Shown here: positions 31,808-37,595 of the stretch, piece by piece | Layout of the letters: every line of letters begins with the position of its first letter | Numbering within the stretch: position 1 is the stretch's first letter | DNA from: Chloroflexota bacterium | GTDB taxonomy: Bacteria > Chloroflexota > Anaerolineae > JAAYEA01 | Reading direction: 5' to 3' | DNA length: 64,000 bases | NCBI GenBank assembly: GCA_019873665.1 | Contig: JAIOAV010000005.1 | Span: 1 to 64,000, forward strand | The notes under the pieces: model-generated | Databases searched by the model: none | The model's input: only the letters and a program-made list of their open reading frames with translations | Told to the model about the DNA's origin: nothing | Made by a program: the position numbers and the translations under genes

Positions 31808-32611
31808 GTGTTTCACGCCATCGTCTGCATCAAACAGGTGCCGGAAACAACCGAAGTTCAGATCAACCCCGAGACCAATACCCTGGTGCGCGAGGGGGTC
31901 AAGGGGATCATCAATCCCTTCGACACCTACGCCATCGAGGAGGCGATCCGCTGGAAGGAAAAGCTCGGCGGCAAGGTAACCGTCATCTCGATGGGGCCGC
32001 CGCAAGCGATGGACGCGCTGAAGGAGGCGGTGGCAATGGGGTGCGACGCGGCGGTGCTCTTGAGCGACCGGGCGTTTGCCGGCGCGGATACATGGGCTAC
32101 CGCCTACACGCTCTCTCAGGCGATCCGCAGGCTGGGCGATTTCGACCTCATCCTCTGCGGCAAGCAAGCCATTGACGGCGACACCGGTCAGGTCGGGCCG
32201 GGCATCGCGCGCCAACTGGGCATCCCACAGCTCACATACGTTTCCAAGATCCCGGAGCTGCACTTGAAGCAGCGCGCCATCCGCGTGGAGCGGTTGCTCG
32301 AGGAAGGACGCGAGATGGTAACCAGCACGCTGCCGGCGCTGGTGACGGTCGTGAAGGACATCAACCAGCCGCGCTACCCGACGGTGTTGGGCATCCGCCG
32401 CGCCACGCGCCTGACGATCCCCATCTGGACCGCCGCCGATCTGGAGGGGGCCGACCCGAGCAAGTTCGGCCTGCAAGGCTCGCCCACGCAGGTGATCCGC
32501 ATCTTCACGCCGCCGCCACGTGCCGCTGTCTGCGAGATGATCGCTGCCGAGTCGGCAGAAGAGGCTGCGGCCGCGCTGGTGGAGCGCCTGCTAGCGGAAA
32601 AGGTGTTCTAA
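31808..32611 (+). CDS. etfB: Electron transfer flavoprotein beta subunit
   Basis: (M)FHAIVCIKQVPET…VREGVKGIINPFDTYAIEEA… classic EtfB N-terminus; GTG start with RBS caggaggg; tataat -10 ~95 nt upstream. Confidence 0.85.
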   Translation: MFHAIVCIKQVPETTEVQINPETNTLVREGVKGIINPFDTYAIEEAIRWKEKLGGKVTVISMGPPQAMDALKEAVAMGCDAAVLLSDRAFAGADTWATAYTLSQAIRRLGDFDLILCGKQAIDGDTGQVGPGIARQLGIPQLTYVSKIPELHLKQRAIRVERLLEEGREMVTSTLPALVTVVKDINQPRYPTVLGIRRATRLTIPIWTAADLEGADPSKFGLQGSPTQVIRIFTPPPRAAVCEMIAAESAEEAAAALVERLLAEKVF

Positions 32612-32621
32612 GGAGGAGCGG

Positions 32622-33818
32622 ATGCCATTGCTGCAAGTTCTCGCCGACAAGTGCATTGGTTGCGGGGCATGTGTTGAGACATGCCACTTTGGCGCGCTGG
32701 CGATGGTCAACGACGTCGCCGTGGTGAACGAGGCATGCACTGCCTGCGGCGCGTGCCTGGAGGCATGTCCGGCGGAAGCGCTGGTCTTGGAGCGGCCCAC
32801 GGCCACACCTGGCGACAAGCTGGACAGCTATCGTGGCGTGTGGGTGTGGATCGAGCAGTTTGACGGGGAGGCAGGCAGCATCTCTTGGGAGATGATGGGG
32901 CAGGCGCGCCGGCTCGCCGATGAGCTGGGCAGTCCGGTTACCGCCTGCGTCCTGGGGAGCAACGTGCGCCATATCGCGCAGGAGGCGATCGCGTTTGGCG
33001 CGGATCGCGTCTTTCTCGCCGACGATCCGACGCTGGCCACCTACCGCACGGAACCGTACAATCGCGTGCTGGTATCGCTGGTGCGTGAGCACCGACCGGA
33101 GATACTCCTTCTGGGAGCAAGCGCCCGCGGGCGTGATCTGGCCGGCGCCATCGCCACCGAGATCAACACCGGCCTCACCGCCGATTGCACCGGCCTGGAA
33201 ATTGACCCGGAGACGCGGCTGCTGCGGCAGACCCGCCCCGCGTTTGGTGGCAACATTATGGCCACTATCCTCTGCCCCAACCACCGCCCGCAGATGGCAA
33301 CCGTGCGTCATCGCGTGTTCGAGATGCCGACACCCGACCCAACGCGCCAGGGACAGATCATAGACATCTCGGCAGCTCTGCGAGAGGAAGAGATCGCCAC
33401 CAAGGTGGTTGGTTTCATCCGCGAAGAGGGTGAGGTGAATGTGGCCGACGCCAAGATCATCGTCTCTGGTGGCAGGGGCGTGGGCGGACCGGAGGGCTTT
33501 GCGCCGCTGCGCGAGTTGGCCCAGGTCCTGGGGGGCGCGGTGGGCGCATCCCGCGCCGCCGTGGACGCGGGCTGGATCCCGTATCCGCACCAGGTGGGGC
33601 AGACGGGCCGCACCGTCCGCCCCGATGTGTACATCGCCTGCGGCATTTCGGGCGCGATCCAGCATCTGGCCGGGATGCAGACCTCCAAGATCATCGTCGC
33701 CATCAACCGTGACCCGGAGGCCCCGATCTTTGGCGTCGCCACATACGGCGTGGTGGGCGACGTGGCCAAGATCGTTCCCGAGCTGACCAAACAGATCAAG
33801 AGCAAACTGGGGCGCTAA
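32622..33818 (+). CDS. etfA: Electron transfer flavoprotein alpha subunit with N-terminal 2x[4Fe-4S] ferredoxin domain
   Basis: N-terminal [11 protein letters not shown]…[12 protein letters not shown], followed by a full EtfA (FAD-binding …[12 protein letters not shown]…). Confidence 0.85.
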
Positions 33819-33901
33819 GCGAGCGTTTTCGCCAGCAGGCGCTACGCTATCAGCGCATAATCGGCATTTCCATCCCAAAGGCGCAGATGGAGGAGAGACA
33901 T

Positions 33902-35119: not shown

Positions 35120-35127
35120 GGTGGGGC

Positions 35128-36264
35128 GTGCGCGAACTGACTGACGGCTCGCAGGTCATTGTCAGGGCCGCGCTGGACGCGGGGTGCAACTTTTTCGCTG
35201 GCTACCCGATCACTCCGGCTACCAGCATCTTGCTCTACATGATGCGCGAAATGCCGCGCGTGGGTGGCATCGCCATACAGGGCGAGGATGAGATCGCCTC
35301 CATCGGCTTTTGCATCGGCGCCGTGATGGCGGGGGCCAAAGCGATGACCGCCACCAGCGGCCCGGGCATCAGCCTCTATTCGGAGAACATCGGCCTGGCG
35401 ATCATGGCCGAGGTGCCGCTGGTGATCGTGGATTGCCAGCGGATGGGGCCGGCAACCGGCGGCGCGACCACCGAAGCGCAAGGCGACATCCAATTCCTGC
35501 GCTGGGGCACATCCGGTGGCTATCCGCTGATCGTGCTGGCGCCGGCCAACCTGCTCGACTGCTACCGGCTGACACGCCAGGCGTTCAACCTGGCGGAGCG
35601 TTTCCGCGCGCCGGTGATCATCGCCGCGGACAAAGAGCTGGTGACGATGAACGCTTCGGTGGCACTGGCAGATTATGCGGTGATGCCAGTCGAGCCCCGG
35701 CCGACGCTTTCCCCAGAGCAGCCCTTTGCCGTCTTTGACCCCGCTGATCCGGCGCGCGTCTTGCCATTGGCGGCCTATGGCGGGCCGCATCTGGTGCGTG
35801 TGATGACCTCCTCGCACGACGCGGCGGGCTATCTCACCAAGAATCCAACCAAGGTGGATCAACTGAACCGCCATCTGGCGGCCAAGATAGACGCGCACTG
35901 CCGGGAACTGGAATTTGTCCTCACCGACCCACAAGAGGGCGCAAAGACACTGGTCATCAGCTATGGCATCACCGCCCGGGCGGTGCACGAGGCGGTGCGG
36001 CGCGCCCGGCACGCCGGCCATCGCATCACGACGTTGACGTTGCACACCCTCTGGCCCGTGCCGGAAGAGGCGATCCGCCAGGCGCTGCACGGCATGCGGC
36101 GAGTGCTCGTGCCAGAGCTCAATCTGGGCCAGTACACACGCGAGATCGAGCGGCTGGCCTGCACGGACGCGGGCGGGGCGCGGCCGGAGGTGATCGGCAT
36201 ACATCGCGTGGACGGCGAGATGATCGCGCCGGAGGAGATCCTGGCGGCGGGAGGGTGGACATGA
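35128..36264 (+). CDS. korA: 2-oxoacid:ferredoxin oxidoreductase alpha subunit
   Basis: VRELTDGSQVIVRAALDAGCNFFAGYPITPATSIL… typical KorA/PorA N-terminus; GTG start with RBS gagtgaggtgggg. Confidence 0.8.
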   Translation: MRELTDGSQVIVRAALDAGCNFFAGYPITPATSILLYMMREMPRVGGIAIQGEDEIASIGFCIGAVMAGAKAMTATSGPGISLYSENIGLAIMAEVPLVIVDCQRMGPATGGATTEAQGDIQFLRWGTSGGYPLIVLAPANLLDCYRLTRQAFNLAERFRAPVIIAADKELVTMNASVALADYAVMPVEPRPTLSPEQPFAVFDPADPARVLPLAAYGGPHLVRVMTSSHDAAGYLTKNPTKVDQLNRHLAAKIDAHCRELEFVLTDPQEGAKTLVISYGITARAVHEAVRRARHAGHRITTLTLHTLWPVPEEAIRQALHGMRRVLVPELNLGQYTREIERLACTDAGGARPEVIGIHRVDGEMIAPEEILAAGGWT

Positions 36265-37595
36265 GCCGCACCACGTATCTGGATGAAAAGCAGCTCCCCT
36301 TCTCTTTCTGCCCCGGCTGCGGTCATGCGCTGACCGTCAGAGCGCTCGATGCTGCGTTGGTCAAGCTGCAACTCGACCCGCACGAGGTCGTCATCGTTAC
36401 GGATATCGGTTGCGCCGGGTTGGCGGATCGTTTCTTTGCCACGAATGCGTTTCATGGCCTGCACGGGCGCGCCGTAACCTATGCCACCGGCATCAAGCTG
36501 GCCAACCCGTCGCTCAAGTTGATCGTCATCATGGGCGACGGTGGCTGCGGCATCGGCGGGCACCACGTGATCAGCGCCGCGCGGCGCAACATAGGCCTCA
36601 CCGTCATCGTCATGAACAACCTGAATTTTGGCATGACCGGCGGCGAGCATTCGGTAACGACGCCCACCAATGCCATCACAGCGACCACATGGCACGGTCA
36701 TCTGGAGCGCCCGCTGGATATCGCCACCACTGCGGCCAGCAACGGCGCCACCTATGTCGTCCGCACGACGGCGTTCGACAAAGCGCTGCCCGATCTGATA
36801 GCGGCGGCGATCGCGAACGAGGGTTTCGGCCTGCTGGACGTATGGGAGCTATGCACCGCTTACTTTCAGCCAAGCAACCGCTACGCGCGGCGCGAACTGG
36901 AGGCGGCAGTGGCAGCGATGCCCGGCGGCGCGGGCGTCTTGCATCAGGAGACACGGCCCGAATACAGCCGCGCCTATCGCGCAACCTGCGTCAGCGAGAG
37001 CAGACGCCCTGCCCTCGCGCCATTGCCGCTCGCGGCCAAGTATGATCACACCATCACCCGCCCGCTCAAAGGGGTGATCGCCGGCGCAGCAGGCGCCAAG
37101 ATCGTGTCCACTGCGACGGCCTATGCGCGCGGCGGCGTCCTGTCCGGGTTGTGGGCCACGCAGCGCAACGACTACCCGGTCACAGTGCGCACCGGCTATT
37201 CGGTGTCCGAGGTGATCCTAAGTCCGGAAGAGATTTTCTATCCGGGCATTGCCAGGCCGGATTTTGTCATCATCCTGTTCCCGGAGGGGCTAACGCCTAT
37301 GGTGCGGGCGCAGTTGGCACAGATGGGCGAGGCGGACACAGTGTATGCCGACCAGAGGCTGCTGCCACTGCCCACGCGGGCGCGCATCGTGCCGCTGGAT
37401 TTTGCCCGCGCCAGAATCAGGGCCTGCAAGGAGAACATGGCGATCATGGCCGTAAGCGAGCTGCTGCGCCATCAGGCCATCTACCCGCTGGATGCGCTGG
37501 TGGAGGCCATCCATCTGGGGCAACGCGCCGAATACGCCGCCGAGAATATCGCCGCCGTGCAGGCGTGCGAGGGGATCATGCTGTGCGACGGCTAG
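36255..37595 (+). CDS. korB: 2-oxoacid:ferredoxin oxidoreductase beta subunit (TPP-binding) fused to a gamma-subunit-like C-terminal domain
   Basis: TPP-binding GDGG motif and Cys ligands (FCPGCGH…DIGCAG…), then ~170-aa C-terminal domain resembling the Por/Kor gamma subunit (…RTGYSVSEVILSPEEIFYPGIARPDFVIIL…). Confidence 0.75.
   Translation: MDMSRTTYLDEKQLPFSFCPGCGHALTVRALDAALVKLQLDPHEVVIVTDIGCAGLADRFFATNAFHGLHGRAVTYATGIKLANPSLKLIVIMGDGGCGIGGHHVISAARRNIGLTVIVMNNLNFGMTGGEHSVTTPTNAITATTWHGHLERPLDIATTAASNGATYVVRTTAFDKALPDLIAAAIANEGFGLLDVWELCTAYFQPSNRYARRELEAAVAAMPGGAGVLHQETRPEYSRAYRATCVSESRRPALAPLPLAAKYDHTITRPLKGVIAGAAGAKIVSTATAYARGGVLSGLWATQRNDYPVTVRTGYSVSEVILSPEEIFYPGIARPDFVIILFPEGLTPMVRAQLAQMGEADTVYADQRLLPLPTRARIVPLDFARARIRACKENMAIMAVSELLRHQAIYPLDALVEAIHLGQRAEYAAENIAAVQACEGIMLCDG

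Follow-up and report, generated by a model that had tools for sequence, protein, structure and literature searches.

In a 64,000-nucleotide (nt) stretch of DNA from a Chloroflexota bacterium of the class Anaerolineae (assembly GCA_019873665.1, contig JAIOAV010000005.1, positions 1 to 64,000; hereafter the window), five closely packed plus-strand genes at 31808-37595 encode the two subunits of an electron-transferring flavoprotein (Etf; etfB and etfA), an acyl-CoA dehydrogenase (acd), and a 2-oxoacid:ferredoxin oxidoreductase (OFOR) composed of an alpha subunit (korA) and a beta-gamma fusion (korBG). Judged by its sequence, this is a real five-gene operon with a flavin-based electron-bifurcating type of Etf. 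We give about an even chance to the reading in which these genes form a module, balanced in ferredoxin, that acts on a single short or branched acyl-CoA.

Organization and conservation of the operon

The genes and elements of the operon are as follows.

31684..31712, plus strand: putative promoter; TTGCCC, 17-nt spacer, TATAAT, TG extension; 10/12 consensus matches
31808..32611, plus strand: etfB; 267 amino acids (aa), GTG start; Pfam ETF, E 6e-48; predicted bifurcating (group 2) type
32622..33818, plus strand: etfA; 398 aa; Fer4 family matches at residues 6-61, then ETF and ETF_alpha (Pfam)
about 32631-32795, plus strand: EtfA N-terminal 2x[4Fe-4S] ferredoxin domain, ~residues 4-58
33887..35119, plus strand: acd; 410 aa, Bcd/SCAD type; all three acyl-CoA dehydrogenase (ACAD) Pfam domains (N, M, C)
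35128..36264, plus strand: korA; 378 aa from GTG 35128, open reading frame (ORF) opens at 35104; POR_N and PFOR_II (Pfam)
36261..37595, plus strand: korBG; 444 aa from ATG 36261, ORF opens at 36255; domain VI then domain III

A Shine-Dalgarno-like sequence lies ahead of each start at the gene junctions. The gap between etfB and etfA measures 10 nt, with GGAGGAG preceding the etfA start, and that between etfA and acd 68 nt. The likely korA start, GTG 35128, falls 8 nt past the acd TGA with GAGGTG in front of it, and korBG probably begins at ATG 36261, in an ATGA overlap with the end of korA; with these two inferred starts the proteins have the same lengths, 378 and 444 aa, as their counterparts called in L001, a close relative. 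The putative promoter, assigned by its consensus match, sits within the 224-nt intergenic region that separates etfB from its upstream neighbour, a divergent gene for PolX (DNA polymerase X).

To place the operon among its relatives, ten related loci with EtfA identity of at least 70% and usable flanks were compared. L001 has the identical five-gene order at 87-95% identity, and L087 retains it at 71-86% identity with a thiamine pyrophosphate (TPP) enzyme, not PolX, upstream of etfB. In six sister loci (L089, L090, L091, L169, L170 and L171; EtfA 71-75% identity) a different, Oor-like OFOR directly follows etfA. Its alpha subunit is ~42% identical to the window KorA and scores above the cut-off of the generic NCBIfam model PRK08659, so that it is named a 2-oxoacid:acceptor oxidoreductase with no clue to the substrate. 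L088 carries a further OFOR 8.7 kb distant, and no OFOR lies within 4.8 kb in L092. Because OFORs of two architectures stand in the same place next to a single Etf clade, the sequence comparison points to selection for the Etf-OFOR linkage itself. The same result lends strength to the original prediction, made from the DNA letters and their translations, that the genes form a ferredoxin-centred module; the orthologous clusters are also unlike the Etf loci of respiratory beta-oxidation, so the concern raised with that prediction, that this might be an ordinary degradative Etf, is not borne out.

A KorA-like neighbour accompanies 0 of ~70 EtfA relatives at 51-69% identity, many of which occupy thl-crt-etfBA or acd-etfBA clusters. 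Seen from the OFOR side, no gene recurs close to KorA-KorBG more often than an ACAD (6/82 loci surveyed, 3 of them from Chloroflexota; median distance 150 bp), and the neighbours within Chloroflexota are ACAD and beta-oxidation genes. L010 holds two acd genes, a Bcd-type copy in a thl-acd-hbd-crt block and a window-type copy (64% identity) directly after korBG. Genes of amino acid metabolism occur near some relatives, namely an aminotransferase with an amino-acid permease (L096) and a D-2-hydroxyacid dehydrogenase (L090). Literature searches on an acd-etf-OFOR cluster in Chloroflexi returned nothing specific, which is not proof that it is unreported.

The OFORs of three sister loci were located at 8197-10324 (L169), 8549-10740 (L170) and 5758-8009 (L171). 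Each has a separate 257-aa beta subunit and an OorD-like delta, either free or fused to the alpha N-terminus; no gamma (PF01558) gene is present in the available flanks of these three loci. Domain III may be absent from the sister-clade OFOR, or its gamma subunit may be encoded elsewhere.

The Etf carries the sequence markers of the bifurcating type

Against structures in the PDB, EtfB reaches 220-241 bits with five Etfs that bifurcate or confurcate (7KOE, 5OL2, 6FAH, 7QH2 and 4KPU) and 66-102 bits with canonical Etfs (human, Paracoccus, Methylophilus and 5OW0). The corresponding values for EtfA are 296-444 and 114-172 bits, and the scores of the two subunits with bifurcating structures are two to three times those with canonical structures.

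Individual residues agree with these rankings. Gly123 of A. fermentans EtfB is invariant in bifurcating ETFs and makes room for the flavin of the second FAD, a position at which AMP-binding canonical ETFs carry a bulkier residue (PMC12630350); Gly124 of the window EtfB (AIDGDTGQVGP) aligns to it (4KPU_B). Group-2 Etfs share RxGV and GSPTxV as motifs of the small subunit and RPxFGG as that of the large one, and R38, P239, V242 and R140 of T. maritima EtfABCX, which surround the bifurcating FAD, have been probed by mutagenesis (PMC10734219). Aligned to 7KOE, EtfB Arg28 (REGV) and Pro226/Val229 (GSPTQV) correspond to R38, P239 and V242, and EtfA Arg205 (RPAFGG) corresponds to R140. The FAD-type, bifurcating signature is therefore the one found in EtfB, and the objection that an AMP-type motif might be present fails.

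EtfA is colinear with CarE (6FAH_A) over residues 4-395, N-terminal domain included (E 3e-132). Its Cys11, 14, 17, 21, 39, 42, 45 and 49 make up two CxxCxxCxxxC motifs and do not vary among 16 homologues, so that the CarE-like, ferredoxin-domain EtfA described in the original prediction holds over its full length. FixB, also named there, normally lacks an N-terminal ferredoxin domain. Ferredoxin-domain EtfA homologues are very common in Anaerolineae-labelled assemblies. In Ldh-EtfAB, confurcation is lost on truncating the Fe-S domain of EtfA (PMC9232219), which supports a role for the window domain as a redox relay to or from ferredoxin. With every checked marker present, EtfAB is, at the level of sequence, a group 2 Etf of the bifurcating type. 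A canonical respiratory Etf was considered and rejected on the EtfB glycine, the group-2 motifs and the relay domain.

The acyl-CoA dehydrogenase resembles butyryl-CoA dehydrogenases

In the PDB, Acd is best matched by butyryl-CoA dehydrogenases (Bcd), namely 4L1F of A. fermentans at 321 bits and 5OL2_C of C. difficile at 290 bits. CarC ranks 11th at 263 bits, behind Bcd and short-chain acyl-CoA dehydrogenase (SCAD) structures at 285-321 bits, and glutaryl-CoA dehydrogenases reach about 254-257 bits. By these scores Acd is closest to the Bcds that partner bifurcating Etfs, with SCADs next; the comparison of Bcd and CarC clades suggested earlier thus comes out on the side of Bcd. Caffeyl-CoA reductase was rejected as an identity, as Acd is not a CarC orthologue by the score ranking.

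Glu372 within YEGS occupies the catalytic position and matches the C-terminal YEG(T/S) motif. In the isovaleryl-CoA dehydrogenase type the catalytic base is located elsewhere, and Glu372 therefore argues against that type. The protein extends ~25 aa beyond the end of its ACAD domain. Acd falls under every NCBIfam equivalog cut-off (AcrC, 350 vs 640; Desulfococcus Gdh, 323 vs 470), so its substrate is defined no further than a short acyl-CoA. Among ~45 long ORFs scanned across the window there are none of the butyrate-pathway genes thl, hbd and crt, and no hydrogenase, Rnf or Nfn.

A delta-less OFOR with fused beta and gamma domains

In KorA the YPITP motif falls at residue 34, counted along the long ORF, and the best PDB matches of this protein are the alpha subunits 1YD7 (P. 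furiosus 2-ketoacid:ferredoxin oxidoreductase) and 8YS5_A (H. pylori OorA). In KorBG, Pfam assigns TPP_enzyme_C to residues 50-196 and, weakly, the gamma family POR to residues 283-435 (28.8 bits vs a cut-off of 27.4). A profile built from 23 family members matches the Geobacter gamma subunit 3ON3 at residues 273-435 (E 1e-7) and also covers the full H. pylori OorB chain 8YS5_C. In an AlphaFold2 model of KorBG (mean pLDDT 80.7), the N-terminal half superposes on the beta subunit 8YS5_C (TMt 0.76) and the C-terminal half on the gamma subunits 8YS5_B (0.69), 3ON3 (0.76) and 2RAA (0.76). Profile and modelled fold agree in making KorBG a true beta-gamma fusion. Across the 23 homologues the cluster ligands Cys19, 22, 53 and 200 do not vary, nor does the GDGG...NN TPP motif. 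Clustering of the Etf with an acyl-CoA dehydrogenase and an OFOR alpha/beta-gamma pair is hence upheld by Pfam, profile and fold.

KorA and KorBG are both free of Fer4 domains, and the operon contains no small Fer4 gene. Since the delta subunit, or domain V, is absent, the window OFOR is grouped with the simple, delta-less OFORs that need an external dicluster ferredoxin.

What the OFOR oxidizes is less sharply drawn. Its subunits fall under all NCBIfam equivalog cut-offs (PRK08659, 385 vs 411; PRK09627, 294 vs 579), and of the earlier KorA/KorBG assignment the OFOR identity stands, whereas the 'Kor' (2-oxoglutarate) label is not established. A basic residue, Lys49b in StOFOR1 and an arginine in HpOorB, is needed for 2-oxoglutarate turnover (PMC5020499). 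KorBG has Leu56 at this position, which is L, M or I family-wide, including loci with TCA-like neighbours, and Met127 at the position of StOFOR1 Leu123b. Reading a substrate from these StOFOR1 specificity positions was tried and rejected, both being invariant across 85 family loci whatever the context, and so uninformative.

The fusion is common. The best 120 database matches of KorBG are mostly 436-465 aa long, and all contain both domains. A locus scan with one genome per species yielded at least 80 KorBG loci, from Chloroflexota, Planctomycetota, Acidobacteriota, Gemmatimonadota, Actinomycetota, Myxococcota and Bacteroidota. In 68/80 loci listed, KorBG is preceded by a KorA gene, and most of the others are truncated contigs. 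Literature searches found no characterised enzyme with a beta-gamma OFOR fusion. A single family-wide role for KorA-KorBG was also considered and dropped, because the neighbour census across phyla gives no universal neighbour.

In Planctomycetota and unclassified bacterial metagenome-assembled genomes, six loci (L036, L038, L041, L043, L044 and L023) share a conserved KorA-KorBG block that comprises an ADP-forming acyl-CoA synthetase, a family III CoA-transferase, korA, korBG, an Iso_dh-family dehydrogenase, an HD protein and a 600-aa aconitase-family protein. This block suggests a TCA-like or homocitrate-type role of the OFOR family there.

Comparison with characterised systems

CarCDE, the caffeyl-CoA reductase of A. 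woodii (6FAH), resembles the window proteins in that CarE is colinear with EtfA over 392 residues, including the two-cluster domain, CarD scores 240 bits with EtfB, and the partner is an ACAD-fold dehydrogenase. It is unlike them in that the window Acd scores lower with CarC (263 bits) than with Bcd (321 and 290 bits) and in the OFOR that the window operon would co-transcribe; the CarCDE host is an acetogen, whereas the window comes from Chloroflexota. The Bcd-EtfAB complexes of C. difficile (5OL2) and A. fermentans (4KPU, 4L1F) provide the best structural relatives of Acd and share the EtfB DGDT(A/G)QVGP motif with its conserved glycine, and the same NADH/ferredoxin/enoyl-CoA chemistry would be expected of the window complex. 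Their EtfA, however, lacks the N-terminal ferredoxin domain, and the alignments begin at window residues 62-73. The genes of these two Bcd-EtfAB complexes sit with thl, hbd and crt, not with an OFOR.

Ldh-EtfAB of A. woodii (LctBCD, 7QH2) has an Etf of group 2 whose EtfA bears an Fe-S domain at its N-terminus, and the physiological mode of the complex is confurcation (reduced ferredoxin + substrate -> 2 NADH), the mode that we propose for the window complex in the catabolic sense (PMC9232219). It differs from the window system in that LctC holds one [4Fe-4S] cluster against two in the window EtfA, in a lower similarity (296 bits for EtfA) and in its partner, a lactate dehydrogenase working on a -190 mV couple as opposed to an ACAD near -10 mV. 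T. maritima EtfABCX (7KOE) gives the top EtfB score (241 bits), and its four mutagenised bifurcating-FAD residues are conserved (PMC10734219); genes for EtfC and EtfX (quinone reductase) are absent here, and its large subunit lacks a ferredoxin domain.

The best sequence and fold matches of the window OFOR are StOFOR of Sulfolobus tokodaii (5B46, 5B48), the Magnetococcus OGOR (6N2N) and the four-subunit H. pylori OorDABC (8YS5). All three share with it domains I, II, III and VI, the YPITP and TPP motifs, and four cysteines that hold a single [4Fe-4S] cluster. StOFOR and Magnetococcus OGOR also share the delta-less, two-subunit build, and StOFOR likewise has no internal ferredoxin domain. The domain order is III-I-II + VI in these two enzymes vs I-II + VI-III in the window, and the gamma subunit, separate in H. 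pylori Oor, is fused to beta in the window (PMC5020499). The basic residue of StOFOR1 (Lys49b) and HpOorB (Arg) is replaced by Leu56 in KorBG.

A proposed ferredoxin-balanced module and its alternatives

If the operon is a ferredoxin-balanced module, Acd and EtfAB would form a flavin-based bifurcating/confurcating complex of the Bcd-EtfAB/CarCDE kind that catalyses

enoyl-CoA + 2 NADH + oxidised ferredoxin <-> acyl-CoA + 2 NAD+ + reduced ferredoxin

with the EtfA ferredoxin domain relaying the low-potential electron. The OFOR, to judge from synteny, would share both its acyl-CoA and its ferredoxin pool with this complex. As one two-electron-reduced ferredoxin would be made by one enzyme and used by the other, the stoichiometry is exact, and the net reaction would be ferredoxin-neutral:

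2-oxoacid + CoA + 2 NAD+ <-> enoyl-CoA + CO2 + 2 NADH

We favour the catabolic sense, in which an amino-acid-derived short or branched 2-oxoacid would be oxidised by the OFOR and the resulting acyl-CoA then by Acd/Etf, the reduced ferredoxin made by the OFOR being confurcated onto NAD+. A role in branched-chain or short-chain acid metabolism, which the original prediction had proposed, stays an inference. We lean to this direction because the operon lacks thl, hbd and crt, because amino-acid genes adjoin some relatives (L096, L090), and because cultured Anaerolineae grow better when a partner removes hydrogen. Taking standard potentials of about -500, -10 and -320 mV, we estimate that the oxidative sense costs ~ +25 kJ/mol and so needs low NADH and enoyl-CoA, while the reductive sense is downhill; the reverse, reductive flux is equally allowed by the data.

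Several observations weigh against this reading. The high-potential couple sets the direction of such complexes, the -10 mV enoyl-/acyl-CoA couple favours bifurcation over confurcation, and the characterised Acd-type Etf complexes all run reductively (PMC9232219). The propionyl-CoA dehydrogenase/Etf of C. propionicum is reported as non-bifurcating, in the account cited in PMC5736913, and this exception means that sequence markers do not guarantee bifurcation. An OFOR working on pyruvate or 2-oxoglutarate would make a product that is no substrate for an ACAD. In L003 and L010, korA-korBG follows thl-acd-hbd-crt, an order that fits plain pyruvate-to-butyryl-CoA fermentation. The Acd partner varies among the sister loci, the ACAD of L090 and L171 being 29% identical and L169 having none adjacent. 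In Acidimicrobiia KorA-KorBG lies beside an AMP-forming acetyl-CoA synthetase-type ligase, and in Planctomycetota the OFOR family stands beside Iso_dh- and aconitase-family genes; contexts that differ by phylum in this way indicate an OFOR family without a single role. A stronger form of the proposal, which we regard as rather unlikely, makes the two-cluster domain of EtfA the dedicated acceptor of the neighbouring OFOR and unites OFOR, EtfAB and Acd in one assembly in one Anaerolineae clade, whereby the electrons of 2-oxoacid decarboxylation, at low potential, and those of acyl-CoA dehydrogenation, at high potential, would be confurcated onto NAD+ in a ferredoxin-free, NADH-yielding path that leads from 2-oxoacid to enoyl-CoA.

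The chief alternative, possible but clearly less probable than a shared ferredoxin cycle, is that the two enzymes are co-transcribed for parallel steps of the same fermentation, Acd/EtfAB serving as a reductive, bifurcating enoyl-CoA reductase while the OFOR oxidises pyruvate or another 2-oxoacid. Acd/EtfAB would then either reduce crotonyl-CoA in a butyrate-type fermentation or close a Stickland-like reductive branch as its last step, and both enzymes would feed reduced ferredoxin to a hydrogenase, Rnf or aldehyde:ferredoxin oxidoreductase (AOR) encoded elsewhere. Biochemical precedent is all on the side of this reading. The reductive direction is thermodynamically favoured and the sole one shown for Acd-type complexes (PMC9232219), and Acd is most like the Bcds of A. 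fermentans and C. difficile. Genomic context speaks for parallel steps in the thl-crt-etfBA or acd-etfBA clusters of relatives at 54-60% identity, in the L003 order thl-acd-hbd-crt-korA-korBG followed by AOR, and in the D-2-hydroxyacid dehydrogenase that adjoins acd-etfBA-OFOR in L090. Against this, thiolase, 3-hydroxyacyl-CoA dehydrogenase, crotonase and 2-hydroxyacyl-CoA dehydratase are absent from the operon and from the long ORFs scanned in the window, L010 keeps a window-type acd after korBG besides the Bcd-type acd of its thl-acd-hbd-crt block, and the tight acd-korA-korBG coupling together with two independently recruited OFOR architectures suggests more than shared regulation. A further reading is a direct wiring of the two enzymes, in which the EtfA ferredoxin domain docks to the delta-less OFOR in the pocket that domain V or free ferredoxin fills in other OFORs, so that an OFOR-EtfAB(-Acd) supercomplex would hand the electrons of the 2-oxoacid to NAD+ with no need of free ferredoxin. 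PadEFGHI is a precedent for an NAD+-linked OFOR that includes a flavoprotein subunit, and weak NCBIfam matches to PadG and PadI recall it. The window OFOR has neither delta subunit nor domain V, Etf-OFOR adjacency in the sister clade is more constant than Etf-Acd adjacency, and the external dicluster ferredoxin of StOFOR has been modelled into that same pocket (PMC5020499). We nonetheless judge direct wiring improbable, for the OFORs of L169-L171 retain a delta of their own, which leaves no complementary pattern of loss, and the beta-gamma OFOR family is widespread and mostly without an adjacent Etf.

That the Etf does not bifurcate at all, and acts either as a canonical carrier that takes Acd electrons to a membrane acceptor in respiratory acyl-CoA oxidation or in an AcrABC-like, NADH-dependent enoyl-CoA reduction without ferredoxin reduction, seems to us highly improbable. 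The best NCBIfam names for EtfB, EtfA and Acd are indeed the AcrABC equivalogs, but all three score well below cut-off, the AcrA model matching EtfA in two stretches; L170 has HdrD-like CCG/Fer4 and NarI-like proteins near acd-etfBA, and F. nucleatum offers the case of a canonical Etf that is clustered with a Bcd (PMC12630350). The diagnostic EtfB residue is nevertheless glycine and not the bulky canonical residue, no group-2 motif is missing, a canonical ETF would have no use for a conserved 2x[4Fe-4S] relay domain, and no Etf:quinone oxidoreductase or FixCX gene lies in the operon or among the window ORFs scanned. An insertion of ~15 residues in the large subunit is proposed, again as cited in PMC5736913, to make the C. 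propionicum complex non-bifurcating; alignments of EtfA to CarE and T. maritima Etf contain only single-residue gaps and no large insertion is visible. Least credible is a chance adjacency of functionally unrelated Etf-Acd and OFOR genes. Most of the KorA-KorBG loci fetched do lack an Etf or ACAD neighbour, but the gene order is kept at 71-86% identity despite the changed flank of L087, a second OFOR type takes the same position in the six sister loci, and the junctions overlap or nearly touch. On conserved order and overlapping junctions we rejected it.

Other features of the window and of related loci

Downstream of the operon lie genes for two GFO/IDH/MocA oxidoreductases, a radical SAM protein and gcvH-PA-PB. 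The gap between korBG and the first of these (37596-37848) contains two tandem ~90-nt units with inverted ends GTCATTGC...GCAATGAC and an inner hairpin, AAGCAATCYCC-N-CAGGAGATTG, at 37641-37671 and 37733-37759. The region has a predicted RNA fold of -87.7 kcal/mol (z -4.5), and the window holds only two copies of the unit. An Rfam scan of 31500-37900 gave no match. Because the matching gap in L001 measures 39 nt, the units look inserted, and 37596-37848 looks like an inserted palindromic element of the REP/MITE-like kind.

On the minus strand at 55988-58345, a 785-aa ORF with AFOR_N and AFOR_C domains encodes a tungsten-type AOR, which also indicates ferredoxin-based metabolism; an AOR follows korA-korBG in L003 as well. 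A single 1214-aa ORF without internal stop at 48654-52298 (minus strand), near gcvH-PA-PB and on the opposite strand to it, contains SHMT (~residues 50-437), two GCV_T domains (one in the middle, one at 799-1076) and GCV_T_C; it is either an SHMT-GcvT-GcvT fusion or a read-through of sequencing or assembly. Five ORFs of 248-732 aa have no Pfam match at E <= 1e-5 and are candidate genes: 1169-3367 (minus), 52326-53516 (minus), 39927-40775 (plus), 9856-10602 (minus) and 17477-18244 (plus).

Among more distant Etf relatives (EtfA 66-67% identity), a conserved ORF of 817-818 aa follows etfB-etfA in L095 (5534-7987), L096 (9505-11961) and L099 (7839-10295). The L096 copy has no Pfam match at E <= 1e-5, and the protein may be a new Etf partner. 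In L170, genes for an HdrD-like CCG/Fer4 protein and a NarI-like membrane protein (2061-4045, minus strand) lie upstream of acd-etfBA-OFOR with ribosomal protein L9 between them and the cluster; this resembles the Etf-linked Fe-S oxidoreductase of syntrophic butyrate oxidisers.

Implications

All components of the operon are known kinds of enzyme, and we regard it as a moderately interesting, testable lead, not a surprise. Two features look unreported, the pairing of Etf and OFOR that one Anaerolineae clade conserves and the beta-gamma OFOR architecture, whose delta-less members make up a large family of many phyla with no characterised member found in our literature searches. If the operon encodes an ordinary reductive Bcd-type complex with a pyruvate oxidoreductase, the finding is one of routine annotation.

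In the anaerobic degradation of fatty and amino acids, acyl-CoA oxidation is the thermodynamic bottleneck, and the solutions known so far rely on membrane-bound reverse electron transport. Supplied with reduced ferredoxin by an OFOR from the same transcript, an Acd/EtfAB complex would be a soluble and stoichiometrically balanced alternative and, run in reverse, would drive reductive carboxylation with NADH. A single assembly of these enzymes, if it exists, would let a fermenter pass the hard ACAD step without reverse electron transport. For the Anaerolineae, which are abundant in digesters and sediments and whose physiology is poorly known, the acd-etfBA-OFOR cluster provides a concrete set of genes.

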